The notes under the pieces are model-generated. The model worked only from the letters and a program-made list of their open reading frames with translations. It did not search any database and was not told where the DNA came from. Both the position numbers and the translations under genes were made by a program. This document shows, piece after piece, positions 1,999 through 19,590 of a DNA stretch of 24,765 nt. Source of the DNA: Promethearchaeota archaeon (lineage in GTDB: Archaea; Asgardarchaeota; Odinarchaeia; Odinarchaeales; JBHLKK01). Every line of letters begins with the position of its first letter. Positions within the stretch are counted from its first letter, which is position 1. The stretch is from NCBI GenBank assembly GCA_048939465.1, contig JBHLPL010000017.1, positions 1-24,765 of the forward strand, in the 5' to 3' direction.

Positions 1999-2047
1999 GT
2001 GAACTGCTCCACCCTTTCGGATGGAATCTTCTTGGGGAGAAGAAGAT
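1999..2047 (-). repeat. Hairpin repeat copy A (IS200/IS605 right-end-like)
   Basis: Minus strand AUCUUCUUCUCCCCAAGAAGAUUCCAUCC-GAAA-GGGUGGAGCAGUUCAC; 7-bp stem with GAAA loop; 42/49 identical to copy E (17237-17285). Confidence 0.8.
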
Positions 2048-2083
2048 AAATATCGGTGGAATACTCATCTATACGGTGGTTGT

Positions 2084-2114
2084 GTAAACTACTCCTCCCT
2101 TACAGAAGGAGCTT
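2084..2114 (-). repeat. Hairpin repeat copy B
   Basis: Minus strand AAGCUCCUUCU-GUAA-GGGAGGAGUAGUUUAC; 8-bp stem with GNRA loop; 21/28 identical to copy A, with a compensatory A-U to U-A change. Confidence 0.75.
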
Positions 2115-2124
2115 ATGGCTATGC

Positions 2125-2156
2125 TTGACCTCAATTCCCTTTCAGGCTTTGGATTC
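2125..2156 (-). repeat. Possible degenerate repeat copy C
   Basis: Minus strand GAAUCCAAAGCCU-GAAA-GGGAAUUGAGGUCAA; only the CCU-GAAA-GGG core and an imperfect stem are kept. Confidence 0.3.
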
Positions 2157-2336
2157 ATCACATGTCAAATCAGGAGGTGGTTTACAGCGCCTCGGCTCGG
2201 TAGTCCACATATAACGTCGGGCTATATACTTCGTCCTTTCAATTCTCCGCGCAGGTCATTAACTGTTTCCACATCAGAGAGAGGTGTGCCTTCAGACTTA
2301 TTTACATGTCCGGCCCAGAAGTGTTTAAGGACCTCT

Positions 2337-2387
2337 CAATTTCTCTCCGCCCTTTCGTGCGGAGTCTCCTTGAGGTGGTTTAGATGA
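2337..2387 (-). repeat. Hairpin repeat copy D, overlapping the SD and start codon of the NDP-sugar gene
   Basis: Minus strand CUCCGCAC-GAAA-GGGCGGAG hairpin; 2361-2387 is 24/27 identical to 14147-14173 (copy F). Confidence 0.7.
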
Positions 2388-3550
2388 AGGCGATCATTCC
2401 TGCGGGTGGATACGGGACCAGGCTAAGACCCCTAACCTATTCAAAGCCTAAAGTCTTACTACCGTTGGCTGGAAAACCAATGCTGTGGTATGTAATAGAG
2501 TATTTGCTAAACTACGGTATTAGGGAGCAGATCATTTCAGCCAATGCTGAATTTAGGGAAATCGAGGAGTACTTTGGCGATGGTTCAGAATTTAAGGCAA
2601 AGCTCAGCTATATATGGGAAAAACAAAGGCTTGGAGGAGTAGGCTGTATCAAGAACGCTTCAAAAGGACTACATGATGCGTTTCTGGTCATGCTCCCGGA
2701 TAACCTAACCGATGTTAACATATCAAACATGATTAAGTTCCATAGAGAAAAACGGTCGGACGCGACCGTTACTCTTGTCCATTCTAAAACACCTTGGTTG
2801 TACGGAGTACCGGAAATAGGAGAAGATGGTAGAATAAGGAATTTCATCGAAAAACCAGACGAAGTTGACCCTACTCATATAGCAACAGGAATCTACATAT
2901 TCGAACCTCATGTCATGGACGATATTGACGATAACAGATTTATGGACCACACAGGTGAAATATTTCCGATAATGCTTCAAGCAAGAAGAAACGTATTTGG
3001 TTTCAGAACAAACGCTTTCTGGGTAGACATTGGAAATCCCACGAAATATCTAATGGCAAACAAATGGGTATTAAGCAAACTCAAGAGCAAAGTCTTCCCG
3101 GCTGCCAATGCTCGGGACGCAATCATAAGAGGAAGGGTTGACATAGGTGCTAACACGGTTATTGAGTCAGGAGCGAGAATTAATGGACCTGCTTATATCG
3201 GTGACAGTTGCCATATCAAGAGAGACTCAATAATTGGTCCGAATACATCGATAAGCTCCAATGTTAGAATCGGGGAACACGTTCAGATTAGAGGCAGTCT
3301 GGTTTATGAATGGTCAGATATTGGAAATAAGACGAAAATGCGGGATTCGATCGTTGCAGAAAAAGTGTCAATCGGACGGGACGCAAGGATAAGCGATAGC
3401 ATTGTTGGCTCTGAATGCGTCATTGGACGTTCTTCAACGATTCGGTCAAATTCAAGGATCTGGCCCAAAATCCGCGTTGAGCCAAAATCAACGATAAAAG
3501 GAATTCTGAGACACACGTATCTGCCCATCAAATCTGATTTGCATCAATAA
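2384..3550 (+). CDS. NDP-sugar synthase / sugar-phosphate nucleotidyltransferase (mannose-1-phosphate guanylyltransferase-like, GCD1 family) with left-handed beta-helix tail
   Basis: MKAIIPAGGYGTRLRPLT..KPK signature, FIEKP, FWVDIG, C-terminal hexapeptide repeats; GAGGTG SD. Confidence 0.92.
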   Translation: MKAIIPAGGYGTRLRPLTYSKPKVLLPLAGKPMLWYVIEYLLNYGIREQIISANAEFREIEEYFGDGSEFKAKLSYIWEKQRLGGVGCIKNASKGLHDAFLVMLPDNLTDVNISNMIKFHREKRSDATVTLVHSKTPWLYGVPEIGEDGRIRNFIEKPDEVDPTHIATGIYIFEPHVMDDIDDNRFMDHTGEIFPIMLQARRNVFGFRTNAFWVDIGNPTKYLMANKWVLSKLKSKVFPAANARDAIIRGRVDIGANTVIESGARINGPAYIGDSCHIKRDSIIGPNTSISSNVRIGEHVQIRGSLVYEWSDIGNKTKMRDSIVAEKVSIGRDARISDSIVGSECVIGRSSTIRSNSRIWPKIRVEPKSTIKGILRHTYLPIKSDLHQ

Positions 3551-3553
3551 CAT

Positions 3554-4123
3554 TCAGGGCAGTAGAATAATCCGTGTCAAAAATACCAATAGTAACGTTC
3601 CGATTGCGTCGCCCAAAGTTGTAATAATGGGAGGGGTGAAGTTATCTGGATCCAGCTTTTTTCGAATAACGATGTTTGCAACAAACAAACCGACACAGCA
3701 CATTAGAATGGTCGTAAAAATCCCAGAAACGAGTATTATGGTAAACAGGGCAAATAGGCTTACGTCAATTCCAAAGAAAGCAGCGTTTATTCCGAAAGTA
3801 ATCAAGGATAGCAATACGAACCCCGTCAAGGCCACCAGAGACAGCCCAATAAGATCTGAGAACAGAATGCCGTATGGGCGGTATTTTCGGTCTAGTTCAC
3901 CGAGGAGTATGCGTGATGTTAATCTGGCAGCGAAGACGCTGGCAAATCCCCCTACCATATTGATGAAGGCGGGGATCATTATGAAGAAGAAGGGAAACTG
4001 TGTGACGTATATATCAAGAGCTGTTCCAAGATTGCGTCCCGTAAAGAGTGAGAATCCTAGTATGCTCAGTAGTATGGGTAGACTCTCCCTTACAATCCTC
4101 GACATCTTATACATCTGAGCCAT
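3554..4123 (-). CDS. MgtE integral-membrane-domain protein (half transporter, downstream partner)
   Basis: IPAFINMVGG..SVFAARLTS and LDPDNFTPPIITTLGD motifs of the MgtE membrane domain; 5 hydrophobic segments. Confidence 0.85.
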   Translation of the reverse strand: MAQMYKMSRIVRESLPILLSILGFSLFTGRNLGTALDIYVTQFPFFFIMIPAFINMVGGFASVFAARLTSRILLGELDRKYRPYGILFSDLIGLSLVALTGFVLLSLITFGINAAFFGIDVSLFALFTIILVSGIFTTILMCCVGLFVANIVIRKKLDPDNFTPPIITTLGDAIGTLLLVFLTRIILLP

Positions 4124-4135
4124 ACCTAAATCCTC

Positions 4136-4723
4136 CTATATTGGCAAGAATGTTCCTACGAACATTACTAAACGAACCACGATTAGTAAATAGAATACCG
4201 TTAAAACATCCCCTAACGTTGCAAGGATGGGGATGGTTATGTTATCTGGATCTAACCCTCGATATGCAGAATACAGTGCAACGAAAACTGTTATTGCAAT
4301 CTGAGTTACTCCAGATAGAAATGCAGTCAAAAGGGCTATTAGTATGAACCCAAGAATACCCAAGCCTGACAGCCCAAGGAGTGAACAAACAAAAAATGCG
4401 AGACAAGCCAAAACGAATGCTACAATCAATCCAAGAAAGAGAGATGACTTAACATTTTCTTTCAGCTCATCGTTGAACCCTAAGTTCCAGCCAATCACAC
4501 CCAAGTGTATGGCTGATCCTAAACGTTGTCCCAGAGAGGCAGAAATGTTCCCTCTAGCTTCCATCAGTCCAGGCAAGAGCAAAATCAGACCAGGTAAAAT
4601 CGCATAAAAATCAGAAAGCCCTGTGAGGAGAGCGCCTGCCCCGACCTCTGCCAGCGCAGTGAGGATTACAAAGGGTGCTACTTCTCGATATATCTTCTTT
4701 ATTACAGAATAGTCTACACCCAT
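4136..4723 (-). CDS. MgtE integral-membrane-domain protein (half transporter, upstream partner)
   Basis: LPGLMEARGNISASLGQRLGSAIHLG and GLDPDNITIPILATLGD motifs; tandem with a paralog 13 nt away, as in split archaeal MgtE-type systems. Confidence 0.87.
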   Translation of the reverse strand: MGVDYSVIKKIYREVAPFVILTALAEVGAGALLTGLSDFYAILPGLILLLPGLMEARGNISASLGQRLGSAIHLGVIGWNLGFNDELKENVKSSLFLGLIVAFVLACLAFFVCSLLGLSGLGILGFILIALLTAFLSGVTQIAITVFVALYSAYRGLDPDNITIPILATLGDVLTVFYLLIVVRLVMFVGTFLPI

Positions 4724-4825
4724 TGAACCACACCCTATCCGAGTTTGTGTCCAGATACGACATAATAGGTCGGGGACCTCCCTTTCGGAAGCTCAGCTTC
4801 CAGCTACTTCTTTGGGCAGCACTCT
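4724..4825 (-). promoter_or_regulatory. Structured 5' leader (riboswitch-like candidate) of the MgtE pair
   Basis: Four hairpins in ~70 nt: 4787-4801, 4778-4791 (GAAA loop, mutually exclusive with the first), 4758-4772 and 4736-4757 next to the SD. Confidence 0.4.
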
Positions 4826-4847
4826 AGTGATTCTAATAAACGAACCA

Positions 4848-4863
4848 TTATTTAATATTTTCG
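4848..4863 (-). promoter_or_regulatory. BRE plus TATA box for the MgtE pair
   Basis: Minus strand CGAAAA-TA-TTAAATAA; predicts a TSS near 4825, giving a ~100-nt 5' leader. Confidence 0.55.
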
Positions 4864-4933
4864 TATACCCGAAACTTTCTTATTGGCATCTCCCAATATT
4901 GAAAGCGGATACTTAGTAAGCTCTTAGATATTC

Positions 4934-5719
4934 TCAATGGCTTTTAAGAGTTTCTCTGACTACTTTTCGTGCAAAGGTAATATACGCAGTGTGTCCAATT
5001 ATCAGAGTTGCGGGGCGGGTCATATTCTCCCTTACCAATATGGGACGGACTAGGCATTCAACAGTTGTTATTAGGCCGAATTCGTTCCTCATAGCATACA
5101 CAGTCTTCTGCGTCTGTTCGATTGTTGGAGAGTAACTTACGAGAACTCCTCCCGCCTTCAAAGCTTCATAAGCGTGGGGGATCGCGATCCAAGGTGTAGC
5201 CAGATCCAGAATTACCGCGTCGATATCTCGCTCGTCGATTCCTTGGGTTACGTCTTTATTTTTGAGTTCTATGTAGTCGACCAAACCAGCTTTCTTTATA
5301 TTCTTCTCAGCGATCTTAATGTGATTCTCCTTTATCTCATAGCTGTAGACCCTTCCTGAAGGTCTGACAATATTGGCAAGCATGATTGCAAGCGCCCCGC
5401 TGCCCGTTCCTGCTTCAAGTACTTGACTCCCTGCCCCAATTCCGGCGTATGTAATTATTATGGCTGCATCTTTCGGATAGATAATTTGTGTTTTTCGATT
5501 AACCTTGAGAGCGAAGTCTTTCATGAGCGGATAAAAGACCATAAACTCGGTGCCCGTATTGCTCTTGACACAACGTCCATACCCACTTCCAATTATATCA
5601 TTGAAATCCACTATCCCCTTGTGTGTGTGAAGTTTCTTGTCTTTTTCAGCTTTTACTAACCATTGTCTCTTAGTGTCTAGAGCTATCAGTACGGGATCGC
5701 CCTCTCTTATCACCGTCAT
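4934..5719 (-). CDS. trmI: tRNA (adenine-N1)-methyltransferase (m1A57/58), TrmI/Trm61
   Basis: RKTQIIYPKDAA, VLEAGTGSGAL SAM motif, YSYE, DAVILDLATPW, SYSPTIEQ, GHTAY. Confidence 0.95.
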   Translation of the reverse strand: MTVIREGDPVLIALDTKRQWLVKAEKDKKLHTHKGIVDFNDIIGSGYGRCVKSNTGTEFMVFYPLMKDFALKVNRKTQIIYPKDAAIIITYAGIGAGSQVLEAGTGSGALAIMLANIVRPSGRVYSYEIKENHIKIAEKNIKKAGLVDYIELKNKDVTQGIDERDIDAVILDLATPWIAIPHAYEALKAGGVLVSYSPTIEQTQKTVYAMRNEFGLITTVECLVRPILVRENMTRPATLIIGHTAYITFARKVVRETLKSH

Positions 5720-5780
5720 CTTATCACCACGTTGTCTTTCTCAAGTGGATTGTAGTCCCAAAATAACAGAGACTGCCATA

Positions 5781-5790
5781 GTTTATAAAC
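5781..5790. promoter_or_regulatory. Palindromic TATA box likely shared by divergent trmI and the radical SAM gene
   Basis: GTTTATAAAC is a perfect palindrome, roughly central in the divergent intergenic region. Confidence 0.5.
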
Positions 5791-5853
5791 TTCCATGCAT
5801 CCTAGAAAAGACGAATCAGTTTTTCTCAAGTGAGTGTTCCAAGAGTGAAAAAT

Positions 5854-6882
5854 ATGAAAGATGATGCTTTTGTCAAACAGGCTAGGCTTTATGAAGCCCT
5901 AGCTAACAATGCGGTTAGATGTATGACTTGTGAACATAGATGCAGGATATCTGATGGAGATCTCGGATTCTGTAAAACTCGAAAGAATATAGGTGGCGTC
6001 TTATACACTTTGGTCTACGGAAACATAAGCTCCCTAAGCTGTAACCCCATTGAAAAAAAACCACTATTCCACTTTTGGCCAGGAACTCTAGCATTGACTG
6101 TGGGAACGTGGAGCTGTAATTTTACTTGTCCTTGGTGTCAAAATGCCGCGATCAGCAAGAAATCCCCTCATGAAAGCGTGGGTAAGTTCTTGAGCCCAAA
6201 GGGCCTGGTCGAAATTATGATAAGAAGACATTGTAGAGGAACAAGTTATAGTCTTAATGAACCTACACTTCTTTTGGAACACGCGATTGAGACATTTCCT
6301 ATTGCTCAAAAAGCAGGGTATTACAACACCTATGTTACTAACGGCTATATGACATTGAAAGCGCTGGATCTTCTGATTGATGCAGGTCTCAACGCCATGA
6401 ATATCGACATTAAGGGATGCAAAAACAGTGTAAAGCGATATTGTGGCGCAGATGTTGAGTTCGTTTGGAGAAATGCAGCACACGCTATGAGTAGGGGTGT
6501 TCATACAGAGATAACTACCCTAATCATCCCTGGAGTTAATGACAGAGAGAAATGCCTCAGATCTATTGCTGGAAGAATTGGAAGCCAGTTGACAATAGAT
6601 ACCCCGTGGCATGTAACGCGGTATTTTCCGGCGTACAATTTCACGAAACAGCCGCCCTCAGTCCAAACATTGGAAAGGGCAAGAGAAATCGGTTATGAAG
6701 AGGGGTTGAAGTATGTTTACGTCGGAAATGTACCTAATCACCCAGCGGAAAATACCTACTGTCCCAGCTGCAAAAAAACCCTCATTGAGAGACATGCACT
6801 AGGTGTACTTAGATATAGAATCAAGGAGAAGGGCTATTGTCCAGAATGCGGCGAGAGGATTAATATCATAGGAAGCTATTGA
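5854..6882 (+). CDS. amrS: AmmeMemoRadiSam system radical SAM enzyme (PFL-activase-like)
   Basis: N-terminal C-x2-C..C, IEKKPLFHFWPG, CNFTCPWCQN (CxxxCxxC), NEPT, TNGY, NIDIKG, PWHVTRYFP, C-terminal CPSC/CPEC. ORF open from GTG 5830; ATG 5854 preferred. Confidence 0.9.
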   Translation: MKDDAFVKQARLYEALANNAVRCMTCEHRCRISDGDLGFCKTRKNIGGVLYTLVYGNISSLSCNPIEKKPLFHFWPGTLALTVGTWSCNFTCPWCQNAAISKKSPHESVGKFLSPKGLVEIMIRRHCRGTSYSLNEPTLLLEHAIETFPIAQKAGYYNTYVTNGYMTLKALDLLIDAGLNAMNIDIKGCKNSVKRYCGADVEFVWRNAAHAMSRGVHTEITTLIIPGVNDREKCLRSIAGRIGSQLTIDTPWHVTRYFPAYNFTKQPPSVQTLERAREIGYEEGLKYVYVGNVPNHPAENTYCPSCKKTLIERHALGVLRYRIKEKGYCPECGERINIIGSY

Positions 6883-6957
6883 CACTAGATATCAGAGCAG
6901 GAAGAATTGGTGAAGGGAATAGCAAACTAGTTGCTTGAGTTCATTGAGGGCTCAAAA

Positions 6958-7638
6958 ATGGAAGTCTTTTGGGATAGGCAAGTGAAGCTTCAGTTTCCTG
7001 AATTGAAAATAGCTTTTGGAACAGTCGAGAATATAGTAGTAAAGCCCAGTGGAAATATGCTCGATCACATTGAGAAAAAGATTCTCGAAGAAGCAAGAGC
7101 CAAATACACGCTTCAGAACCTGAAGGACGAGCCAATCATACGTATGTATCGAGACTTCTACTGGCTCTTAGATATTGACCCGACAAAAACAAGACCGGCT
7201 GGCGAGGCATTGATACGTCGGGTACTGAGAGGAAATAGAGTTCCGAGAATATTGAATGTTGTCGATGCATACAATCTGGTGTCCATCGAGACACGTCTAG
7301 CTTTCAGTGCTTATGACCTTGATAAGCTGAATCCTCCACTGACAGTCCGCTTTTCAAGAATCAATGAGACGTTTGTGGGCATGGGGAAGGAAATTCCTCA
7401 AAAGTTGACAGGTAAAGAGATTATTCTTACTGATCAAAGACAAATAAGGAGTCTTTATCCTCATAGGGATGCCAAGAATTCAAGGATTACTAGGCTGACA
7501 AGAAGTATTTTGCTTGTTGTTTACGGGGTGCCTGGCATTGAAGGAAAGGTCTTGGAGGAAGGACTGACAAAATCATGTGAGTTAATTACGGCAATCGCAG
7601 GAGGAACGGCAGGAGAGATCCAAGTAAGCTACCCCTAG
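6958..7638 (+). CDS. Stand-alone B3/B4 domain protein (PheRS-beta editing-like, tRNA-binding)
   Basis: YRDFYWLLDIDPTKTRPAGEALIRRV, NVVDAYNLVS, AYDLDKL, YPHRD. ORF open from TTG 6931. Confidence 0.88.
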   Translation: MEVFWDRQVKLQFPELKIAFGTVENIVVKPSGNMLDHIEKKILEEARAKYTLQNLKDEPIIRMYRDFYWLLDIDPTKTRPAGEALIRRVLRGNRVPRILNVVDAYNLVSIETRLAFSAYDLDKLNPPLTVRFSRINETFVGMGKEIPQKLTGKEIILTDQRQIRSLYPHRDAKNSRITRLTRSILLVVYGVPGIEGKVLEEGLTKSCELITAIAGGTAGEIQVSYP

Positions 7639-7857
7639 CTTTCGTAAGGGACTTCCTCCCCCGGATTCTGAATCGATATTAACTCTCCTTTTGGAGTGAT
7701 AAAGACTGGGGAGATTCTGGGCCGATTCACTTCCCGCCTTGAGCCGCCACAGACTTCTGGATAACCCTCCCGTGAAGCATAAGTCAGAGGGGCTGTTACC
7801 CACGCAGACCTCTCCCTTTGATAGCCTCCCTGCTTTCGAGGTAACAGATCCTGGCCC
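7624..7857 (-). ncRNA. Candidate structured ncRNA (~234 nt) ending in repeat copy G; TnpB omegaRNA / IS200-IS605 right-end-like
   Basis: Several helices: GGGCC 7857-7853 with GGCCC 7723-7719; CUGUUACC 7847-7840 with GGUAACAG 7800-7793; CCCUCU 7791-7786 with GGAGGG 7770-7765; CUCCCC 7713-7708 with GGGGAG 7661-7656. Terminal CCCUUAC-GAAA-GCUAGGGG-UAGCUUAC matches the repeat family. TATA box TTAAATAT at 7880-7873. Confidence 0.5.
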
Positions 7858-7862
7858 TAAAT

Positions 7863-7882
7863 ACTTAAGAGGATATTTAAGT
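7863..7882 (-). promoter_or_regulatory. TATA box inside an inverted repeat, upstream of the candidate ncRNA
   Basis: Minus strand TTAAATAT at 7880-7873; ACTTAA (7863-7868) / TTAAGT (7877-7882) inverted repeat overlaps it. Confidence 0.45.
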
Positions 7883-8049
7883 GTAAAGCAATTCATCGCC
7901 ATGATTTCGAATGGCGTCTTCTTGCGATGAGCAGACAAAATCGTCTGGATGGGATTTTCTGAGAGCGTTATGGATGTGCTCTTAATTCTTCTTTATAGGC
8001 AACATATATTTAGCTTAGAAACCATTAATAGATTTGAGAGGAATTAATA

Positions 8050-9315
8050 ATGACCGCACCCGTAAGGATAGCCTTTGATGAAACTCATAACGAAGGGGGC
8101 AGACTTCAAACCACCTATTCAAAATTGAGAGAAAAACTTGAAGAGGAAGGGTTCAACTGCTTCAGCATAATCGACTTCCCCGTCGTTCTGAAGAAGCTCC
8201 AAGAGTTCAATATTCTCGTCATTGCAGGACCTGATCTTTCGAAGTTTCGTCAGACAGAAATTCAGGACATAATTAAGTTTGTTGATACGGGTGGTGGGCT
8301 GCTAGTTATGTCTGACGCCGGCGGCGACCGAGGACATATGACAAATCTAAATGGCATAACTACATCTTTTGGAATAAGATTCAATAACAATCAAGTGACT
8401 GATTCGAGGAATAATCTGGGAATAGATACAGTCCCTATAATAACTGATTTTAAAAACCACGAGATTGTAAAAGAAATAGATAAGGTCTGTTATCGAGCTG
8501 GCTGCAGCTTGGCTGTATCAGGCAATGCCCGCCCAATCGCACTCTCCAACCGTATAGCTAATCCGCAATCAGTCCCCATAATTGCAGTAACCGAATATGG
8601 ATTGGGAGCAGTAGTTGCGGTCGGAACATACGAGATGTTTCGTAACGAAGGATTGGGCGGAATTGATACACCACAGAACTCTCAGCTTGCATTGAATATA
8701 TTCCGCTGGTTCGCCAAGATGCCCAAAGTCATTCCCGTCGTTAGTGCGGAGGTCATCTCAGAGAAGCTCAAAATGGAAGAAGACTCACCAGCAGTATTAG
8801 AGGCTGATTCAGAAGCCCCTGCTCCTTCGATGAGAGATCTTATTCCGAGTGTCGTGGAACAGGTCAAAGCTCACTCATCTTCAATCAAAGAATTAGAGAA
8901 CCTACCTGCCGAAATTAAGAAGATCGGAAGTACTCAAGGAAAACTGAAAGCTTCTCTTAGAGATTATGAGGATCAGCTGAAATCCTTTGGAAATCTTAGG
9001 ACTCAGGTAGATGCAATTAATGAGAGAATTGGAAAAGCCGCTCCTATTGATGAAGTTAAGAAAGTAAAAGAAGCTTTGAACAGAATCAGAGGTGAAGTAG
9101 ACAATTCAGTGAAGATATCCGAAGAGAAATCCGAAAAAATGCTGGCCTTGAGCATTAAGATTGATGCTCTAAGCGAGAGAATTCAAGCTCTTGAAGGTAA
9201 CCTAGGGCAGATAGGCGAAAAGCTATCAGAATTGGAATCGGAGATTGCCAAACCAAAACGTCGAGGAAAAAGAAAGAAACGAAAGAAGTCTCAGAATTCT
9301 TCTTCTGAAGCTTGA
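8050..9315 (+). CDS. GIFT/DUF4350 (GldG/IFT52-like, class I GATase-like fold) domain protein with C-terminal coiled coil and basic tail
   Basis: IAFDETHNE, FNILVIAGP, IIKFVDTGGGLLVMSD, GAVVAVG..EMF are typical of this domain; residues ~270-400 are heptad-rich; tail KPKRRGKRKKRKK. Confidence 0.7.
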   Translation: MTAPVRIAFDETHNEGGRLQTTYSKLREKLEEEGFNCFSIIDFPVVLKKLQEFNILVIAGPDLSKFRQTEIQDIIKFVDTGGGLLVMSDAGGDRGHMTNLNGITTSFGIRFNNNQVTDSRNNLGIDTVPIITDFKNHEIVKEIDKVCYRAGCSLAVSGNARPIALSNRIANPQSVPIIAVTEYGLGAVVAVGTYEMFRNEGLGGIDTPQNSQLALNIFRWFAKMPKVIPVVSAEVISEKLKMEEDSPAVLEADSEAPAPSMRDLIPSVVEQVKAHSSSIKELENLPAEIKKIGSTQGKLKASLRDYEDQLKSFGNLRTQVDAINERIGKAAPIDEVKKVKEALNRIRGEVDNSVKISEEKSEKMLALSIKIDALSERIQALEGNLGQIGEKLSELESEIAKPKRRGKRKKRKKSQNSSSEA

Positions 9316-10295
9316 GCAAAACAATACACGAAAGTTAGAAAGAATAGTACGGCCGAGACTATAATCGCTATGGTCATAGCCACCAGGTTGAATCGGTAAA
9401 AGATTTCTATAACAAGGAATGTCGCACCGACCAAGATTCCCAAAGCAGTTATGCCTTTTCCGACTTCTCCCCATTTCAACCTCAGCAGAATGACAATACC
9501 CATAATCCCGAGAGAGGCGGGGTTAATATAGTCAAACAGAAATTGCATATTCCCTAGCTGAGGTAACCAAAGAAATGCAAACGTACAAAACAGAACTAGA
9601 TCGAGCACTCTGACCTTCCAGCCGGTGATCTCAAGAGCTTCGGAAACCGACTGACGCCTTAGCAGGTTACCTAGAAACCAGATAAACGAGCCAATCGTGA
9701 TAGAGTTCACAATCCAGATTGAAAACGCATATAACAGGCCGATTGAATCACTCCAGACAATCGTAATCCAGTTCCAAACAGGCAGATAAGCCGGGTAAAA
9801 TAGGGCTAGTAGGAGAATCGGGACGGCAGAGACAAAAATGAGGATGATTATCGTGTACCCTGCGAGAACTCTTCTGCTTCGATTCCAGGCAAAATCCGAA
9901 GCCAGCACGACTCTCCAAGCAGCCACCGCGCTCATGAACACACCCAGAGGTGGTGAAGCAAAAGGCAGCAGAAAGAACAGAGCAACAAATGAAGTGTTTA
10001 TTCCATAAAATATTATCCATCTTAGGGGTACAATTGTTGTCTTCTCTCTCCACACCTCAAAGGTGTTTGCAAGACGATTTCGATATATAAAGATAAAAAG
10101 CAGCCATGGCGAAGTGAAAACAATCGGCATAATCACATATTCAAGAAACACGCTCAGGAGCTCACTCCCCAGAAACTGCGGCGGGACAATTCGCGGACTA
10201 AAGAGCATCAAAATCACGAAATAGATTGGGAGGAACACAGCAGTAATAAATACGAGAAACCTAGAGATTTCAATACCTCTCCAGTAACTTGCCAC
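9291..10295 (-). CDS. Hypothetical polytopic membrane protein (~9-10 TM)
   Basis: 334-aa ORF made almost entirely of hydrophobic segments; GTG start; 3' end overlaps the convergent gene by 25 nt. Confidence 0.8.
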   Translation of the reverse strand: MASYWRGIEISRFLVFITAVFLPIYFVILMLFSPRIVPPQFLGSELLSVFLEYVIMPIVFTSPWLLFIFIYRNRLANTFEVWREKTTIVPLRWIIFYGINTSFVALFFLLPFASPPLGVFMSAVAAWRVVLASDFAWNRSRRVLAGYTIIILIFVSAVPILLLALFYPAYLPVWNWITIVWSDSIGLLYAFSIWIVNSITIGSFIWFLGNLLRRQSVSEALEITGWKVRVLDLVLFCTFAFLWLPQLGNMQFLFDYINPASLGIMGIVILLRLKWGEVGKGITALGILVGATFLVIEIFYRFNLVAMTIAIIVSAVLFFLTFVYCFAQASEEEF

Positions 10296-10438
10296 TGTTG
10301 AGCCACTCCGTTATCTAGGTTTAAGCGATGAACAATAAGATAAAGATTTTGTAAGAATGGTTAGAACATATGTTCTAATGAACTGGGCAAAAGGAAATAT
10401 ATGGACAGTGTATCTATTATAGACGATTGGGGATTCTT

Positions 10439-11245
10439 ATGTCTGAATTTCTACAAAGACTATGGGGAACTTCAGAAGAGAACAGGAGTCGCATAGTCCT
10501 GGCCCTCGACCTATCAACAGATTTAGCTACGGTAAATGAATTAGATCGAGACAAATCTCGTGAAGAGTTAGTCGAGGCCGCCTTGAGAGTGATTGAAGAA
10601 ACCCACGAACACGTTGCGGCAATAAAGATTAACAGACAACTTGTTCTGCCACTTGGATTGTTCGATCGTCTGCAAAGGATCATAAAAGCTGCAAAGTCCT
10701 TCAAACTCCCGCTTATAGTTGACTGCAAGATAAATGACGTGGGACACACAAATCTTTGGATTGCTCAACATTATTTTGCTGCTGGATTTGATGCCGTAAT
10801 CGCAAACCCATTTGTAGGCTGGGAAGGAGGGCTTGAAAGCGTTTTTGAACTCGCCCGTGGAAAAGGGAAGGGTGTGATACTCCTCGTCTACATGTCACAT
10901 CCCGCCTCTGGAGAAGGATACGGACAAACCGTATATGACCCAAACTCTGGTCTGAAGACATTTCAATATTTGATTTTTGCAGAGAAAGCTGCTAAATGGG
11001 AAGCAGATGGAGTAGTTTGTGGAGCAACCTTTCCAGAAAAAATCCGAGATGTTCGCAATGCTTTAGGTGATGAAATTCCAATCTTCTCCCCAGGCATTGG
11101 ACCTCAAGGAGGCTCAATGAAGGAGGCATTCGATGCGGGAACGAGCTTCGCAATCATAGGGCGTTCGATATATCAGGCGGAGGAGCCAAGACAGACCGTG
11201 CTATCTTTCAAGGAATCTATTAACCAGTTCCTGAAAGACCGGTAA
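10439..11245 (+). CDS. pyrF: Orotidine-5'-phosphate decarboxylase
   Basis: IVLALD, AAIKIN, catalytic DCKINDVGHTN (DxKxxD), VVCGATFP, SPGIGPQGG, IIGRSIY. ORF open from TTG 10427. Confidence 0.95.
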   Translation: MSEFLQRLWGTSEENRSRIVLALDLSTDLATVNELDRDKSREELVEAALRVIEETHEHVAAIKINRQLVLPLGLFDRLQRIIKAAKSFKLPLIVDCKINDVGHTNLWIAQHYFAAGFDAVIANPFVGWEGGLESVFELARGKGKGVILLVYMSHPASGEGYGQTVYDPNSGLKTFQYLIFAEKAAKWEADGVVCGATFPEKIRDVRNALGDEIPIFSPGIGPQGGSMKEAFDAGTSFAIIGRSIYQAEEPRQTVLSFKESINQFLKDR

Positions 11246-11268
11246 TGATCCCCGATTGTGATAACTGG

Positions 11269-12213
11269 TCACGTGGTTTCTTCTCTCTCTTGCATCTCCG
11301 TTGTCTTCCAATTTGACCACGATCTGCTAATTCCTTTGTAGTATATGTTCAGGATTACCGCTCCTGCAATGATCATAGTCGTTCCGATTACTCGAAGGTA
11401 GGAAACTGGAAAGACTATCTGTCCGTTAATTGGCAGAAGTATCATTTCTCCGAAAATGAATACGGCAGCGACCATAGGAATACATATGGAAAGACTTGTT
11501 ATCAACGGAATTGCAACTGCAGATCTTCCTTGAGACAAAGTGACTTGCTTCAAGATGAAACTTGTAGCAGTTAATGTTGCCAATCCCCAGAAGATTGGAT
11601 TTACAACTAATAACAAAGGATTCAAGAGTGACAGTGATTCGCTGCCGCTCTCGATGGTCATCCATTTTGTGAATATTTCTGCCAGACTATAGAGCAACCC
11701 TGCCGTTAGAGCAGAAATCAGAGCTTTCTTATTGCTAACACGACCCAAGAGTTGAATTCCAATAGCGACTGTTAGTAACGCACCCATTACAACAACCAAC
11801 ATTGAGAAGTCATAAACGTAAGTACCTGTTCTTTGAGGACTGTAACTTAGGAGAAAAACCCCAGTAATCATAGCAATTATTCCTAGCCATTCGGGTCTAT
11901 GGATTCGCTCCTTTAGCTTGGTCACTCCTATGAATATCACTACCATAGTATTCGCATTCATCAACGGGCGAACTACCACTAGATCACCGATGGCTACGGC
12001 CTGAACATAAATCAACCACGCAAGCATTCCTGTAAGAAGGCCAAGAACCCAAACCTTGTTGGAAAGTAGTTGCTTGAGGACTTTGAAGATTTCTCTTATG
12101 AATTGGCCAAAAGTTAGTGGAGAAACCCTTGCCAGAGCCTTCTTCTGCATTGAGGTGGCAGTCCCAGACAAAGAGGCAGCTATTAATGCGAGTATGACGT
12201 ATTCTCCACTCAT
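11269..12213 (-). CDS. EamA/DMT-family (NIPA-like) membrane transporter
   Basis: Two-repeat DMT architecture, QKKAL, GDLVVVRPL, LKERI..EWLGI, IFGE. Confidence 0.85.
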   Translation of the reverse strand: MSGEYVILALIAASLSGTATSMQKKALARVSPLTFGQFIREIFKVLKQLLSNKVWVLGLLTGMLAWLIYVQAVAIGDLVVVRPLMNANTMVVIFIGVTKLKERIHRPEWLGIIAMITGVFLLSYSPQRTGTYVYDFSMLVVVMGALLTVAIGIQLLGRVSNKKALISALTAGLLYSLAEIFTKWMTIESGSESLSLLNPLLLVVNPIFWGLATLTATSFILKQVTLSQGRSAVAIPLITSLSICIPMVAAVFIFGEMILLPINGQIVFPVSYLRVIGTTMIIAGAVILNIYYKGISRSWSNWKTTEMQEREETT

Positions 12214-12296
12214 ACGATTAGCCCTCAGGATTTTTGTTTAAAATTAGATGAGGATGATTTTAAAGATTGGGGCTTTCTTGGAAGGTATGTAGGCTA

Positions 12297-12494
12297 TTAG
12301 AGGCGTGATATTTCATTGAGAGGTACTTTGTGCCATGTTTCCTTTCGAATGAAGTGCCTTATTGCTTCGCGGATTGCCTCGCTTCTACTCGGATAGAGGC
12401 CCACTTCGACTAACGCATCTAGACCTTTAATGTAGGTTTCGGGCATTTTCACTGTGACGAGTTTTAACCATTCATCGACATTTTCTTCTTTCAA
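12297..12494 (-). CDS. Ribbon-helix-helix (CopG/Arc/MetJ) transcriptional regulator
   Basis: LVTVKMPETYIKGLDALVEVGLYPSRSEAIREAIR is the archaeal RHH signature; GGAGG SD before the TTG start. Confidence 0.9.
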   Translation of the reverse strand: MKEENVDEWLKLVTVKMPETYIKGLDALVEVGLYPSRSEAIREAIRHFIRKETWHKVPLNEISRL

Positions 12495-12622
12495 TGGTTA
12501 ATTTCCCTCCAATCGTTATGCCATTATTCGGGACTGAGAATAAAAACTTTTCGTCGGAAGAATTTCCAAAAAAAAGCCCACAAATTGATTAACTTGATTT
12601 TAAGGATCAGCCAGGTACTTTC

Positions 12623-13372
12623 CTAGGAATGCGGTTCTTCCTCTAATGATGCCCATAGGTACTCGAAGTAACCTGCCGATATACGAGCAAGACCCAAATG
12701 GTCAGACCAAATGCCAACTATTGGATTAACCAAGACTATCACTACTTCTTTGTAGTCAATTATGACGCCACCACCAAAAAGCTGTTCAGTTGTTTTGACC
12801 TCAGCCAGTCGACTGATCTTCTTGAAAAGGCTTTTGGGGAGGGATGTTACCAGAACCTTTATTGATACACCTTTATCGTTTAGGACATGGAGAACCGGGT
12901 ATATCATGTCCAAGACTTCGGGCGTAATTGTTGGCAAGGATGCCAAAACAGTTTTTTCAGCTTTGCCAAGCATTGCTTTAATCTTAGCAATGACTTTGTC
13001 TTCCCCGCGCAGAATCCAAACATCAGGCCTTTCAGCTTCTGTACTCTTATTGTAGAAAGGCTGCAGCTCCCTCAGTATTTCTGCTTCAATTCTCTCGAGC
13101 TCTTCCTGTTTTCTCAGCTTTACGTGTCTTAAGGTTTCTTCAGGAGAGGCGGATTTAAATCTCTTTGGACGCCCCCTTTCAATGAGAATCCATCCAGATT
13201 CCTCCAGACTGGTTAAGACATCATAAATCCTGCTCTCAGGAACTCCGCTTAGCCAACTGGCTTCTTTTGCCGATAGAGCTCCCTTCTCAATCAACGTCAG
13301 ATAAACTCGAGCTTCATTCGGCTTCAAACCCAGGGCTTTGAGCATTCTATCAACACGGTCACTGATTGACAT
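12623..13372 (-). CDS. TrmB-family transcriptional regulator
   Basis: LGLKPNEARVYLTL, SGVPESRIYDVLTSLEESGWI, GRPKRF wHTH, followed by a PLD-like effector domain. Confidence 0.92.
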   Translation of the reverse strand: MSISDRVDRMLKALGLKPNEARVYLTLIEKGALSAKEASWLSGVPESRIYDVLTSLEESGWILIERGRPKRFKSASPEETLRHVKLRKQEELERIEAEILRELQPFYNKSTEAERPDVWILRGEDKVIAKIKAMLGKAEKTVLASLPTITPEVLDMIYPVLHVLNDKGVSIKVLVTSLPKSLFKKISRLAEVKTTEQLFGGGVIIDYKEVVIVLVNPIVGIWSDHLGLARISAGYFEYLWASLEEEPHS

Positions 13373-13494
13373 CTTCTACTTATCTCCTTTTTCCATTAAG
13401 CTATCCTCAATCTTAAAGGTTACACCCGGTTTCAACATTTTCAGAAGTTTTTTATGTAACATGCTACATGAAAATATCTGGTGGAAACCACCTT

Positions 13495-14127
13495 ATGAGT
13501 GCCTCGGATGTACCCAAGGATCAGGAAGAAGAGAGGGAAAGACCCACACTTCTGAACAGGATTAGAACATATGTGAGAATTACCGGTATAAATGAAATCG
13601 CGAGACGGTATTTTGTAATGAATGCCTTCGATGGGGCCTTGACAATCCTTGGGATTATTATGGGTGCCTATGCAATAGGAGCCATCGATCCGAAAGTTAT
13701 TATAGGCGCAGGTCTCGGCGGAAGCTTAGCAATGGCAATCTCAGGAGTCAGCGGAGCTTATATGACCGAGAGCGCAGAGAGACTTAGAGAGTTAGAGAGA
13801 TTAGAGAAAGCGATGCTGAAAACACTGGACAATACTGTTCAGTCAAGAGCGATTAGATTCGCATCCATATATGTAGCCGTAGTGGATGGAGCAGCCCCAT
13901 TAGCTGTTTCAACGATTGCAATAGTTCCTTTCATTCTATCCCAAATAGGCCTTTTCGAAGTTGGGATTGCAGTTATTCTATCTGTAGGCGTTAATCTTCT
14001 TATACTCTTCTTGCTTGGTGGATTTCTAGGGAGAATCTCAAAAAGAAACGTAATCATCTCTGGTCTAAAGATGGCGGCCGCAGGGATCGGGACAGCACTT
14101 GTTGCATTGTTGCTGAATCTTCTGTAG
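13495..14127 (+). CDS. VIT1/CCC1-family metal (Fe/Mn) transporter-like protein
   Basis: RRYFVMNAFDGALTILG, AMAISGVSGAYMTESAE, LFLLGGFLGRIS. ORF open from 13468. Confidence 0.88.
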   Translation: MSASDVPKDQEEERERPTLLNRIRTYVRITGINEIARRYFVMNAFDGALTILGIIMGAYAIGAIDPKVIIGAGLGGSLAMAISGVSGAYMTESAERLRELERLEKAMLKTLDNTVQSRAIRFASIYVAVVDGAAPLAVSTIAIVPFILSQIGLFEVGIAVILSVGVNLLILFLLGGFLGRISKRNVIISGLKMAAAGIGTALVALLLNLL

Positions 14128-14173
14128 ACTACCCACTCTATCTGAAGGAGTCTCCTTGAGGTAGCTCAGATGA
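14124..14173 (-). repeat. Hairpin repeat copy F (stem decayed), filling the gap between convergent VIT1 and methyltransferase genes
   Basis: gtagactac-ccactctatctgaaggagtctccttgaggtagctcagatga; left half aligns to copy E, right 27 nt are 24/27 identical to copy D. Confidence 0.7.
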
Positions 14174-16234
14174 CTATGGACTTCCGTATCCGCAGCTCTT
14201 CAGAACCTCATAGAGAGTGCCTATTACTCGTTCAGGTTGTTCGACTTTCATCGCTTTGATCAGCGAAAGGTCCAATTCGTATCTATACTTTTCTCCCAAT
14301 TGATTCCACAGCGGAGGAATACGTTTATTCAGTATTTTATTGATACCATTAGATGTATCGTAGAAGCGTACAGTCTTGGGTCTTACATTGATAACAGGTA
14401 GTTCCAGATAATCACTTTCTAAGAGTCTTGTCCATCTGTCAGAGATTCTCCTGCCGAGCAAAACCAGCGCAGATATGAAAATCGTGCTGTTGAACCAGCC
14501 TACGAGGGGTTTAATGATTCGAGAATCTTCATCCTTGATTATGAAGAAGTTCTTAGATGCTGCCACCCGCTCCTCCGTGTAGTTGGCAAAAACGCTTCTT
14601 TTCGCAAAAGACAGGTCGACCTTATCTGGTACGAAAATCCGCCCATACGGCTTTTTGGAAATCATCTGTCGGTATACATGACTATACCAGTACTTGCCAT
14701 AAGCTCTCACGGATGGATCGGCCGTCCCAGATTCCTTACCCCATCTAATGTAGGCTTCCAAGTCTTTTGGGAGATGATTAGCTTCGTTTGGTGGAATTGA
14801 AATCATATAACTGCTTAAATTGGCCTCGATTGTATCACTGTAGAGACTAGGCTTGCGAAGGGTTCTTACAAAGAAGGCTTTATCCATAGTCAATCCATTC
14901 TCTTCGTCTCTGTTTTCTATTTCAATTGAATATTGATCATCTCTCAAGATTCGCCAGTATCTGTTTGGAATGAAGAAGAAATCGGGGCCATACATTTCAA
15001 CGCCCCGAACAATATTCTCTCTCCCAATCACATCATCCCAATATCCCATGGTACCGTTCTTTAGACCCTGTTGGAATATAGAAACCACAAGGTCCCTCAA
15101 TTCACTTCTCTCCAAAAGAGAAAGCCAATTGAAATCAAGGAATCTTGGGAGTTGATGGATACTAACAGGATTGAAATCCTCATTGGATGTCCCCTGAAGA
15201 GGAGTCTTTGTGCTTTCTCCAGCTTCAGTGCCTATTCTACCAAACAGTGTTGGTCCATTTTGAGAAGTACCCTTGATACAGGATAATATAACCTCCTTAA
15301 ACCCGCTATCTTCAGAGAATGAGGACCTGGAAGCACAACTTACAATCTGCAATACAGAATACTTCTCTTTCAGGAAGTTCCTGTACCCCTTTCCATATAT
15401 CGTGTAGAAGGTGGAAGCCGGAAGAACAGATACAAGTAATCCATTATCATTTAGAAAATAATCCACCAGGAACATGGACAATACTTGAAGACTTACTTCG
15501 CCCTTTGAGATGAAGTCACTATATCCCAAATCGCTTAGTTTATCAATTAAATAGCATCTGTATTCTTTTTCTAAGTACTTCCATCGCGTGAATGGAGGGT
15601 TTGTTGTCACAACGTCACTTCTAGGAAATTCCATACTCTTTCTCAAAGAGGAGCTAGCGGGGATTTCCCTAAAAGCATCACCAAGCTTAACCATGACTAG
15701 CTCTCTCTTTCCCTCCACTGCCTTCAACAAAGATGCGTAACCGACTAGAGCAGGCAGAGGCAAAAGTTCAATACCCCATATCTTGCTTATCCTATCAGCT
15801 CCTATTCTTCGAGCAGTGTTCGTCAGTGTTCGAGCCGACCCAAGGAAAGGGTCTGCGAGTACAATCTTCCTTTTTCTGTGAGTGTTCAGATAATTGCAGA
15901 TTATCGATGTCATATAGTCGATGGCATCTTTCAGCGAGTAATAGGCAGCGTATCTTTTCCTTATTCCATGTGGGATCTGTTTTTGAACGATTGTTTGGCA
16001 CTTTTCAATAGACATGTCTTCTTCCGGTATTTCGGAAATGATGTATCGGAGTTCATCAGAATTCAATTCCTTGAAATTATCCAGTACGGGGGCATCCCAA
16101 GTCTGCTGTAAGTCCGCTTCTGCATTCATATCGTAGTGCAATATAGTCCTTAGCGATGCAATCAGGATTCGAAAATTGATTGGAGTGAGAGGGACTATTC
16201 CGAGCTTTTTCATTATTTTCGCTTTTAATTTCAT
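14174..16234 (-). CDS. N6-adenine DNA methyltransferase (gamma class, Eco57I/TaqI-like, with C-terminal target-recognition region)
   Basis: RKRYAAYYS, motif I ADPFLGSA, motif IV TNPPF, long C-terminal TRD-like region; no N-terminal PD-(D/E)xK domain evident. AAGGAG SD before ATG 16234 (ORF open from 16297). Confidence 0.85.
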   Translation of the reverse strand: MKLKAKIMKKLGIVPLTPINFRILIASLRTILHYDMNAEADLQQTWDAPVLDNFKELNSDELRYIISEIPEEDMSIEKCQTIVQKQIPHGIRKRYAAYYSLKDAIDYMTSIICNYLNTHRKRKIVLADPFLGSARTLTNTARRIGADRISKIWGIELLPLPALVGYASLLKAVEGKRELVMVKLGDAFREIPASSSLRKSMEFPRSDVVTTNPPFTRWKYLEKEYRCYLIDKLSDLGYSDFISKGEVSLQVLSMFLVDYFLNDNGLLVSVLPASTFYTIYGKGYRNFLKEKYSVLQIVSCASRSSFSEDSGFKEVILSCIKGTSQNGPTLFGRIGTEAGESTKTPLQGTSNEDFNPVSIHQLPRFLDFNWLSLLERSELRDLVVSIFQQGLKNGTMGYWDDVIGRENIVRGVEMYGPDFFFIPNRYWRILRDDQYSIEIENRDEENGLTMDKAFFVRTLRKPSLYSDTIEANLSSYMISIPPNEANHLPKDLEAYIRWGKESGTADPSVRAYGKYWYSHVYRQMISKKPYGRIFVPDKVDLSFAKRSVFANYTEERVAASKNFFIIKDEDSRIIKPLVGWFNSTIFISALVLLGRRISDRWTRLLESDYLELPVINVRPKTVRFYDTSNGINKILNKRIPPLWNQLGEKYRYELDLSLIKAMKVEQPERVIGTLYEVLKSCGYGSP

Positions 16235-16583
16235 ATTCTTTCTCCTTCGATTATCGAGGGGACTTACAGGCCTTGTTAATCTGTAAATATGTGACAATTT
16301 GCTTTATTTAGCTTCTCTCGCGACTTCTCGAGGGTAGGATCAATCATCTCCGAAGTACTCATATCCTAATTCCGATTCCCTTATTATGTAGTCTCTACTA
16401 CGGAATAGATGTCCCGCTTTGGTCTGTGATATTGACTAGGACCGAGACACAAAAATAGGCAAATTCATCACAGATGATACCTTCTCTCGATGTTTTCTTG
16501 CCAAAATCCCCGCAAGAGTGTCATTCTGACACCACGAATAAAATATAATTTGGTGTTACTGCCCAATAATACACGGGAGAAAA

Positions 16584-17003
16584 ATGAGACTAGATGATGG
16601 TGAAAAAGAAGCAATCAAGAAGGACGGTCTACGGTGGGGCGTTCTGAAGTGTCTCCATATAACCCTATGCCGGGCTGGATACGGCATGCCTAACTCCGTA
16701 AACAATAACCTAGAGGTCATCAGATCGATTATCGAAACAGGATGCCATGGTATCAAGGGTTTAGAAGAACTATTGAACCGAGTTGAGGACATATTAACCG
16801 ATAAGATGATTTACTTGTTTAGATCATTTCAGTGGTACTGCATGTTGCTTAAAGCAAAGAATGGAGAACTGACAAGAAATGAGACCATGATAATACCTTA
16901 TATGAGAAGTTTGATCCGAAAACATGAGTTTCTAGACTTGTGTATACCCACCGGCCTAGAAACAACCCGAGCAATCGAGGCCTCACTTGCTGTCAAGCAT
17001 TAG
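16584..17003 (+). CDS. Hypothetical protein, DUF2096-like
   Basis: RWGVLKCLHITLCRAGYGMPNSVNNNLEVIRSII resembles the W-x-VL..L..G..P..V...L pattern of archaeal DUF2096 as recalled; not verified. Confidence 0.55.
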   Translation: MRLDDGEKEAIKKDGLRWGVLKCLHITLCRAGYGMPNSVNNNLEVIRSIIETGCHGIKGLEELLNRVEDILTDKMIYLFRSFQWYCMLLKAKNGELTRNETMIIPYMRSLIRKHEFLDLCIPTGLETTRAIEASLAVKH

Positions 17004-17236
17004 AGTTTGCAAGATTACCATCAAGAAACCAGGATGCAGATCTGAAGTTTTGCCTGCTCCACGGTGATGAGGTTTCTGCAAAACGCCTCATTTCCTTCAA
17101 TTTTCATACAGTAAGTCTCTGTCGTGATGGTACGAATCTGGCAAAGAATGAGGGCAGATTTTTTGGACCGATATGAAGCGAACAGTAAGAGTTAACCGTA
17201 CTTTCACTTCTATTAACCATGATTATGTAGGATTGC

Positions 17237-17285
17237 GTGAACTACTCCACTCTTTCGGACGGAGTCCTCTTACGGAGAAGAAGAT
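17237..17285 (-). repeat. Hairpin repeat copy E
   Basis: Minus strand AUCUUCUUCUCCGUAAGAGGACUCCGUCC-GAAA-GAGUGGAGUAGUUCAC; 42/49 identical to copy A 15 kb away; two hairpins kept through G-U wobbles. Confidence 0.8.
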
Positions 17286-18981: not shown

Positions 18982-19590
18982 ATGAATGAGACTTTCACAC
19001 CAAAAACCAGAATCACTAGTATCCCCGGAAGCTCCTTCAAGATTCAGCTGGGGAGAATGGGTGGCTGGGTTATTAGAATCTTGAGAGGTCTGAATATCGT
19101 ATCAACAGTTCCCATAGATGAGGATAGCCTGGTGCCCAACAATATAGTGACAATCATCCAAGTCAATCTTTCGAATAGGTTTATGCCAATCTCACCCTAT
19201 CAAATCTCTCGTGCGGTGTCACAACTCATGAACGACGTGGAAACCGGCTGGAGGCCGGAAGACGAGCGTCTTGTGCAAAGAGAAATTGAAGGAGAAGTCG
19301 AAACAACTGTTTCTGAAGAAACCTCAATGGATTCCGAGACAATAGAAACGTCAGAAGCTGAAATCAGTAAAAGAATCAGAGATGAAACGAAGACCGAAAG
19401 TCAGCTGGAAGGAGAAAGAGAAGCTATTTCACCAAGAATGAGAATGCCCACGGTACTAACACTTCTTGGGCTGCCAAAAAAGGAGAAAGAAGCTGAAGAG
19501 ACCAAGGAAGAAGCTGAAAAAGAAGCTGAAGAGACCAAGGAAGAAGCTGAAAAAGAAGCTGAAGAGACCAAGGAAGAAGAAAGAACCTAG
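18982..19590 (+). CDS. Hypothetical protein: small N-terminal globular domain plus long acidic low-complexity tail with tandem repeats
   Basis: 202-aa ORF; E/T/S-rich after residue ~90; KEAEETKEEAE repeats at the C-terminus. Confidence 0.75.
   Translation: MNETFTPKTRITSIPGSSFKIQLGRMGGWVIRILRGLNIVSTVPIDEDSLVPNNIVTIIQVNLSNRFMPISPYQISRAVSQLMNDVETGWRPEDERLVQREIEGEVETTVSEETSMDSETIETSEAEISKRIRDETKTESQLEGEREAISPRMRMPTVLTLLGLPKKEKEAEETKEEAEKEAEETKEEAEKEAEETKEEERT
19486..19579 (+). repeat. Coding tandem repeat, 33 nt x 2.85
   Basis: AAAGAAGCTGAAGAGACCAAGGAAGAAGCTGAA exact at 19486-19518 and 19519-19551, plus 28 nt at 19552-19579. Confidence 0.95.

Follow-up and report, generated by a model that had tools for sequence, protein, structure and literature searches.

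What are the short hairpin repeats scattered along this 24,765-nt stretch of archaeal DNA, and are they parts of a mobile element? The stretch, which we call the window, is the whole of contig C23 of a 1.96 Mb archaeal draft genome (G000; 152 contigs, 43% GC). A preliminary description had listed six copies of the repeat (A, B, D, E, F and G) and read each of them as a separate right end of a non-autonomous derivative of IS200/IS605 insertion sequences (ISs), similar to palindrome-associated transposable elements (PATEs). That affiliation is borne out by ends that match those of TnpA- and TnpB-encoding elements and by empty sites in congeners: the repeats are very probably PATEs, that is, deletion derivatives, devoid of open reading frames (ORFs), of IS200/IS605 insertion sequences of the TnpB-bearing IS605/IS1341 type. 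The notion of six separate right ends did not survive. The window instead holds five elements, all on the minus strand, of which two are complete (300 and 311 nt) and three are terminal-only minis (46-47 nt); each has a left and a right end, or both ends fused over one hairpin.

All six copies are present at the coordinates first given. On the minus strand each forms an 8-bp stem with a GNRA-type loop, and five of the six carry a (Y)AGTTYAC-type tail. A repeat search of the window agreed with the identities reported before, pairing A with E (86% over 49 nt) and D with F (89% over 27 nt), and also recovered A, B and E together. Iterated nhmmer searches seeded with the six copies returned 66 matches across the genome. 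Under a strict structural definition, the hairpin with a right-end tail occurs 42 times in the genome and the hairpin with a left-end tail 21 times, each compared with 0-2 occurrences in Markov shuffles, and the IUPAC pattern CTCC-N12-GGAG-YAGTTYAC, with one mismatch allowed, has 39 genome matches compared with 0 for a reversed control. The hairpin repeats are confirmed as real and lie far above chance.

Left and right ends have one hairpin consensus in common, CTCCnnCC-GNRA-GGnnGGAG, on a single strand; the loops of the window copies are GAAA or GUAA, and GAUA in F. Pairing was assessed in 40 aligned hairpins that had been picked by whole-element homology, not by pairing. Standard pairs occupied 88% of cells, compared with 83.2 ± 1.1 in shuffles, none of 500 of which reached 88%, and with 52-65% in slid registers. 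The stem pair previously described as covarying does so, occurring as UA (14), GC (10), AU (4) or GU (2), and the strand-specific wobbles are likewise present, as two stem positions are mostly U-G (23 and 11 cells) and would give C-A mismatches on the opposite strand. Much of this covariation splits left from right ends or one subfamily from another, and it therefore represents few independent events.

The sequences around the hairpin tell the two ends apart. In genome-wide matches, a right end consists of the hairpin and TAGTTCAC or TAGTTTAC, beyond which the flank is unrelated; a left end consists of a 5-nt flank (TTTAT or TTCAT), a 19-nt linker, the same hairpin and then A(G/C/T)GAATTG(A/C)G leading into the element. 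On many contigs left and right ends pair on the same strand, 200-300 nt apart. The two ends of an element are not inverted repeats of each other, and there are no terminal inverted repeats. For the D-B type, a 16-copy alignment and BLAST showed sharp borders, the element running from CTAAACC, directly after TTCAT, to GTAGTTTAC; copies are 70-83% identical within these borders and have unrelated flanks beyond them. A, E and F each comprise a 19-nt left linker, one hairpin and a right tail. Of the right ends originally assigned, those at the B and G coordinates stand; D is the left end of an element whose right end is B, and the left hairpin of G, at 7897-7916, had been missed. As first delimited, A, E, F and D included 2-4 outer nt of the flanking target pentamer, which lies outside the element. 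The five elements and their parts are as follows.

1999-2045, minus strand: A, a 47-nt terminal-only mini-PATE of subfamily 1.
2007-2026, minus strand: the single hairpin of A, which also has a 19-nt left linker, the tail CAGTTCAC and the flanking target TTTAT at 2046-2050.
2084-2383, minus strand: D-B, a complete 300-nt PATE of subfamily 2, with D as its left end and B as its right end.
2345-2364, minus strand: left-end hairpin of D-B, with a TATA-like box at 2321-2328.
2180-2185, minus strand: pseudoknot loop GTAAAC of D-B, with the right-end hairpin at 2092-2111 and the tail TAGTTTAC at 2084-2091.
2384-2388, minus strand: target pentamer of D-B (TTCAT, its transposon-adjacent motif or TAM); its plus-strand complement, ATGAA, provides the start codon of the NTP-transferase gene (2384-3550).
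7624-7934, minus strand: G, a complete 311-nt PATE of subfamily 4, with the target TTTGT at 7935-7939.
7897-7916, minus strand: left-end hairpin of G, CGCC..GGCG, a compensatory change from CTCC/GGAG, with a TATA-like box at 7873-7880.
7725-7730, minus strand: loop GTGAAT of G, with the right-end hairpin at 7632-7651 and the tail TAGCTTAC at 7624-7631, the pseudoknot match being decayed.
14124-14169, minus strand: F, a 46-nt terminal-only mini-PATE with a subfamily-2 left linker, a GAUA-loop hairpin, the tail TAGTCTAC and the target GTCAT at 14170-14174.
17237-17283, minus strand: E, a 47-nt terminal-only mini-PATE of subfamily 1 with the tail TAGTTCAC, 33 nt downstream of the hjc stop.

Comparison with orthologous loci, recovered by DNA searches of two genomes of the same genus (G001 and G002), revealed the empty-site pattern expected of IS200/IS605 elements. 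A, D-B and F are absent at the orthologous sites in both congeners and G is absent from G002 (C134); for E, no orthologous site could be aligned in the congener genomes. The interval between the genes that flank A and D-B measures 53-59 nt in the congeners, compared with about 400 nt in the window. On the minus strand, the empty site of D-B reads CCTTCAT^TCTTAACCACC and the filled site CCTTCAT[CTAAACC...GTAGTTTAC]ACAACCACC; for A, the empty site reads ATATATAT^TAAAAATTC and the filled site GATATTTAT[CTTC...GTTCAC]TAAGAATTC. Wherever the site was resolved (A, D-B, G and F), the breakpoints fall on the borders shared by the whole family and the element lies 3' of a TTCAT- or TTTAT-like pentamer, with no target duplication. 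Target pentamers differ between subfamilies, with TTTAT at 12 of 29 subfamily-1 junctions and TTCAT at 13 of 25 subfamily-2 junctions, and right ends finish in a target-like 5-mer, TTCAC or TTTAC, compared with the targets TTTAT and TTCAT. A base-pair covariation between target and left linker (A/G at -4 with T/C in the target) looked promising between subfamilies and was rejected, being contradicted by individual copies. Metagenome contigs from mangrove and sediment run across G, F and E as filled sites, and loose ends of metagenome contigs at 2084, 2387, 2050, 17238 and 17285 correspond to element borders.

The window encodes neither tnpA nor tnpB. The preliminary description had suggested a TnpA/TnpB encoded elsewhere, and a search of the genome found three elements with the same ends, at C2, C70/C55 and C105. 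The C2 element (25973-27281) is TnpB-only (TnpB of 383 aa); its left end is a linker and hairpin of the A/E type, and its right end, 37 nt past the tnpB stop, is the subfamily-1 hairpin with CAGTTCAC. Contigs C70 (1-77) and C55 (5967-6043) overlap by 77 identical bases, the assembly having broken inside a repeat; joined, they yield one TnpB element with a D-type left end and a B-type right end. On C105, tnpA (135 aa, a full Y1_Tnp match) and tnpB (427 aa) precede the same hairpin and TAGTTCAC. This tnpA, within a tnpA-tnpB IS605, is the single Y1 gene found in the genome. Pfam matches on the three elements were Y1_Tnp, OrfB_IS605 and Cas12f1-like_TNB. About 65-90 nt of left end and 95-160 nt of right end are common to the short elements and these parents, which identifies the short elements as internal-deletion derivatives. 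The lengths of the short elements, 46-311 nt, fit the too short and non-coding character of PATEs, and their same-strand subterminal hairpins, 4-5 nt target without duplication, target-like end motif and ends common to TnpA/TnpB elements are those of the IS200/IS605 family. ORF-less elements outnumber tnpB genes in the genome by more than 10 to 1. A 47-nt mini-PATE lies at C105 996-1043, directly upstream of the only tnpA-tnpB IS605 (provisionally 1044-2845), which has a possible TTGAC target about 20 nt further in.

After merging of hairpins, the 1.96 Mb genome contains about 67 elements. The density of one per roughly 4 kb given earlier therefore describes the window, where five elements in 24.8 kb amount to about six times the genome average, and not the genome as a whole. 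Polarity behaves similarly. The uniform orientation first described applies to the window (5/5 on the minus strand), where its two-sided chance is about 0.06, so it gives no evidence for a genome-wide strand bias; neighbouring elements on one contig of this draft of 152 contigs lie on the same strand in 17 cases and on opposite strands in 13, which at this level of assembly gives no genome-wide support to a replication-linked polarity. Copies across the genome are single or form directly oriented left/right pairs. The right-end pattern is also common in two genomes of the same genus (24 and 12 matches), and the right-end motif CTCC..GGAG-TAGTTCAC occurs in G018, G007, G028, G058, G034, G095 and G043, which belong to other families of the phylum (34, 13, 10, 9, 8, 8 and 7 matches; controls at most 2). 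Right ends in these other families carry many differing compensatory stem variants. The IS lineage is old and widespread in the phylum.

The interior of the longer elements has the features of a promoter and an omegaRNA. In all three longer subfamilies, a TTTAAATA-like box lies about 16-25 nt past the left hairpin; in the parents it lies upstream of tnpB. The element ends in six nucleotides whose complement is found in a hairpin loop some 100 nt upstream, and both partners change together between subfamilies: the tail GTTTAC goes with the loop GTAAAC (12/13 copies), the tail GTTCAC with the loop GGAAC or GTGAAC, and GTCTAC with GTAGGC in one subfamily-5 copy. Within the D-B family the six pseudoknot pairs are 89% formed, compared with 33-45% when slid, and all six are paired in the window D-B. 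From the right-end regions of the parents, copies of the D-B type retain about 160 nt (C55) and those of subfamily 1 about 95 nt (C2). Two marks of an omegaRNA are present: the pseudoknot, and a scaffold directly upstream of the right-end boundary that in the parent extends over the 3' end of tnpB. Promoter, omegaRNA scaffold and pseudoknot loop are all missing from A, E and F.

The established mechanism of the family suggests how the elements may work. Y1 TnpA, supplied in trans, would cut and rejoin the strand that bears the hairpins, in single-stranded form. In elements of 300-311 nt, the promoter of the left end would be joined to the final 95-230 nt of the parent, the predicted omegaRNA scaffold; such a fusion could give rise to a guide RNA that takes its guide from the right flank. 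A TnpB encoded in trans and loaded with this RNA may then re-cut the emptied site, restoring the element. The 46-47 nt forms probably arose through recombination between two near-identical hairpins, retaining only what TnpA requires.

Several observations weigh against this account. The only tnpA found, that of C105, belongs to an element with a differing left end, a longer linker and possibly a TTGAC target; that its product mobilises the present subfamilies is inferred. Contigs from four mangrove/sediment DNA runs show only filled sites and no joints, with no sign of ongoing excision. In the window, the TATA-like box of D-B is weak (TTAAACAC) and the pseudoknot of G is partly decayed (one mismatch, two wobbles). 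No Rfam family matched the window, the parents or other copies at the gathering threshold or at E<=1. Covariation in the interior is weak within a subfamily: in 16 copies of the D-B type, RNAalifold showed it at 6 of 53 pairs (covariation term, -0.29), and we therefore claim no full secondary structure. None of the sequencing runs listed for this DNA is an RNA run, and transcription of the cassettes is a prediction.

How much of the family exists for mobility, and how much for its RNA? One alternative is that the repeats are stand-alone guide-RNA genes, dispersed omegaRNA cassettes that programme a trans-acting TnpB for retention or for another RNA-guided task. The TATA-like box, scaffold and pseudoknot kept by D-B and G, the more than tenfold excess of ORF-less elements over tnpB genes and the literature precedent for PATE-borne omegaRNAs (PMC10055086) speak for it. 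Against these stand the three of five window elements (A, E and F) without promoter, scaffold or pseudoknot loop. The guides themselves also count against it: in the genome, second targets of the 16-nt right flanks were limited to chance-level matches with two mismatches, none with a TAM, so the only plausible target is the element's own emptied site, the donor joint. We regard a guide-RNA role as the reason for these repeats as possible but doubtful.

Two further explanations were weighed. Repetitive extragenic palindromic (REP) or bacterial interspersed mosaic element (BIME)-type repeats served by a REP-associated tyrosine transposase (RAYT) would also be short, mostly intergenic hairpins with a conserved tetranucleotide-type tail in a genome that encodes a Y1 enzyme. 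Here, the only Y1 gene lies within the tnpA-tnpB IS605 and has no flanking REPs, direct homology links the copies to both the left and the right ends of TnpB elements, and inverted REP doublets are lacking, all copies being single or direct left/right pairs; this explanation is very improbable. We give still less credence to host cis-regulatory hairpins, such as leaders that sequester the Shine-Dalgarno (SD) sequence or terminators, conserved for function and not for mobility. Their placement at gene borders and the SD-like and stop-codon sequences on the opposite strand would suit such a role, yet the hairpins are absent from orthologous congener loci with intact genes, recur with the same borders at unrelated loci and have their structure on the strand antisense to most adjacent genes. 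Group II intron ends, C/D-box RNAs and SD-sequestering leaders were also considered as candidates and were ruled out by the borders, the empty sites and the TnpB parents.

With PATEs as the preferred reading, the position of their borders relative to genes becomes relevant. The subfamily-2 target TTCAT is the complement of ATGAA, a start codon plus AA. At 9 of 25 subfamily-2 left junctions (10 with a GTG start), the ATG opens an ORF of at least 140 codons that reads away from the element; by comparison, such an ORF has its first start at only 2.2% of all ATGAA sites (binomial p = 1.5e-9), and 13% precede any long ORF (binomial p = 0.003). Such junctions at start codons of housekeeping genes, one of them of subfamily 1, occur in the window (2384-2388) and on C27, C59, C66, C139 (twice), C70, C24, C138, C61 and C41. 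Eight junction ORFs, seven at subfamily-2 junctions and one at the subfamily-1 junction on C24, were checked by Pfam, and seven were confirmed: PFL-like, class-III aminotransferase, isocitrate/isopropylmalate dehydrogenase, POR alpha, POR gamma, a THUMP protein and DUF371. The domain matches begin at profile positions 1-9 within the first 10-39 residues, except in the THUMP protein, where the match lies further in. The NTP-transferase of the window is an additional start-codon junction.

The ends also bring translation signals to these positions. The complement of the first 12 nt of a subfamily-2 element reads GAGGTGGTTTAG, with GAGGTGG 6-7 nt before the ATG; subfamily 1 has a different SD-like GGAG at the same distance of 6-7 nt. 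In the window, the D-B linker replaces the native GGTGG of the congeners. Insertion of F changed the end of VIT1 from CTT TGA, as in the congeners, to CTG TAG, with the new stop at 14124-14127, and with G the final four codons of the B3_4 gene (6931-7638) were replaced together with its stop, so that the gene now closes with four element-encoded codons and TAG (7624-7638). The 3' end of the 16S rRNA was not found in the assembly, so the anti-SD is not readable there. Judged by its sequence and spacing, the left linker may act as an SD. An insertion exactly between the native SD and the ATG would then be harmless, as the left end would bring an SD of its own; start codons, roughly 17% of which read ATGAA here, would become safe landing sites in a gene-dense genome, and right ends would similarly supply stop codons, as at F and G. 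Purifying selection against intragenic insertions explains much of the start-codon enrichment, and we suggest only tentatively that left ends evolved as portable ribosome-binding sites. If functional, start-codon landing combined with SD donation would be a case of a transposon lowering its own cost. The landing of left ends on start codons together with SD supply is possibly the one point that is new.

For annotation, the implication is that intergenic hairpins and small ORFs of the kind seen here are, in this lineage, transposon debris and not genes or regulators. The ORFs at D-B (2115-2387, plus strand, 90 aa) and at G (7582-7938, minus strand, 118 aa) matched no Pfam family; probably spurious, they risk being misannotated as hypothetical proteins. 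Transposon sequence now encodes the start of the NTP-transferase gene and the ends of the B3_4 and VIT1 genes. With regard to TnpB, this genome is a natural collection of nuclease-less promoter and omegaRNA cassettes beside very few tnpB genes, and its four subfamilies with covarying pseudoknots would be useful to define a minimal scaffold.

The window contains other repeats. The ORF at 18982-19590 includes three tandem 33-nt repeats (19483-19581), 91-100% identical, whose product is a repeated peptide rich in E, K and A. On the minus strand, two paralogous genes with MgtE domains lie next to each other at 3554-4123 (189 aa) and 4136-4723 (195 aa), and a 44-nt repeat, D4, at 3609 and 4209 reflects the similarity of these paralogues.

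The preliminary description had raised the prospect of an undescribed archaeal repeat class. The elements are not a new class, and their kind has already been described in archaea: PATEs, including terminal-only forms of roughly 50 bp, were defined in Haloquadratum walsbyi in 2011 as non-coding elements without inverted terminal repeats, with near-terminal palindromes related to IS605-type transposons and with no target duplication (Dyall-Smith et al. 2011, PMC3119063). In that organism, deletion of the core between the two palindromes gave 52-bp terminal-only forms of HqIRS46 and ISHwa23, which may still move, and PATEs are attacked by SMR-type elements (PMC3119063). The archaeal definition fits D-B and G, and the terminal-only forms fit A, E and F; the lineage and the sequences differ, and the minis here measure 46-47 nt rather than 52 bp. 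IS608 of Helicobacter pylori, the model system for how TnpA works, likewise has subterminal hairpins on one strand and inserts 3' of a short target without duplication (PMC10055086, PMC3119063). Its left cleavage site is further from the hairpin than the right one, as here (19 nt and 8 nt), whereas its target is the tetramer TTAC and the target here is a pentamer.

For the RNA, the closest structural counterpart is the omegaRNA of ISDra2, in which positions -5..-3 pair with -103..-105 in a pseudoknot (Nakagawa et al. 2023, PMC10097598). Both scaffolds stop at the boundary of the right end, form a pseudoknot between their final 3-6 nt and a segment some 100 nt upstream, and take the flank as guide. 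The two have no sequence similarity, and in our case the structure is predicted and the RNA would come from a nuclease-less cassette. PATEs often encode omegaRNAs that TnpB must use in trans, as noted in work on Geobacillus stearothermophilus (Meers et al. 2023, PMC10055086), and the Geobacillus genome resembles the present one in its many tnpA-less copies with shared ends and its ORF-less PATEs that retain the omegaRNA. Geobacillus is bacterial and the activity of its elements has been demonstrated experimentally, whereas activity here is predicted from sequence; its TTCAT element carries IscB, and the TTCAT element here carries TnpB. The motifs themselves correspond closely. ISGst2 combines the TAM TTTAT with the transposon-encoded motif (TEM) TTCAC, the pair found in subfamily 1, and ISGst5 has the TAM TTCAT, the target of subfamily 2 (PMC10055086). 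In the ISGst elements TAM and TEM differ at positions 3 and 5 (PMC10055086), and the same difference holds here.

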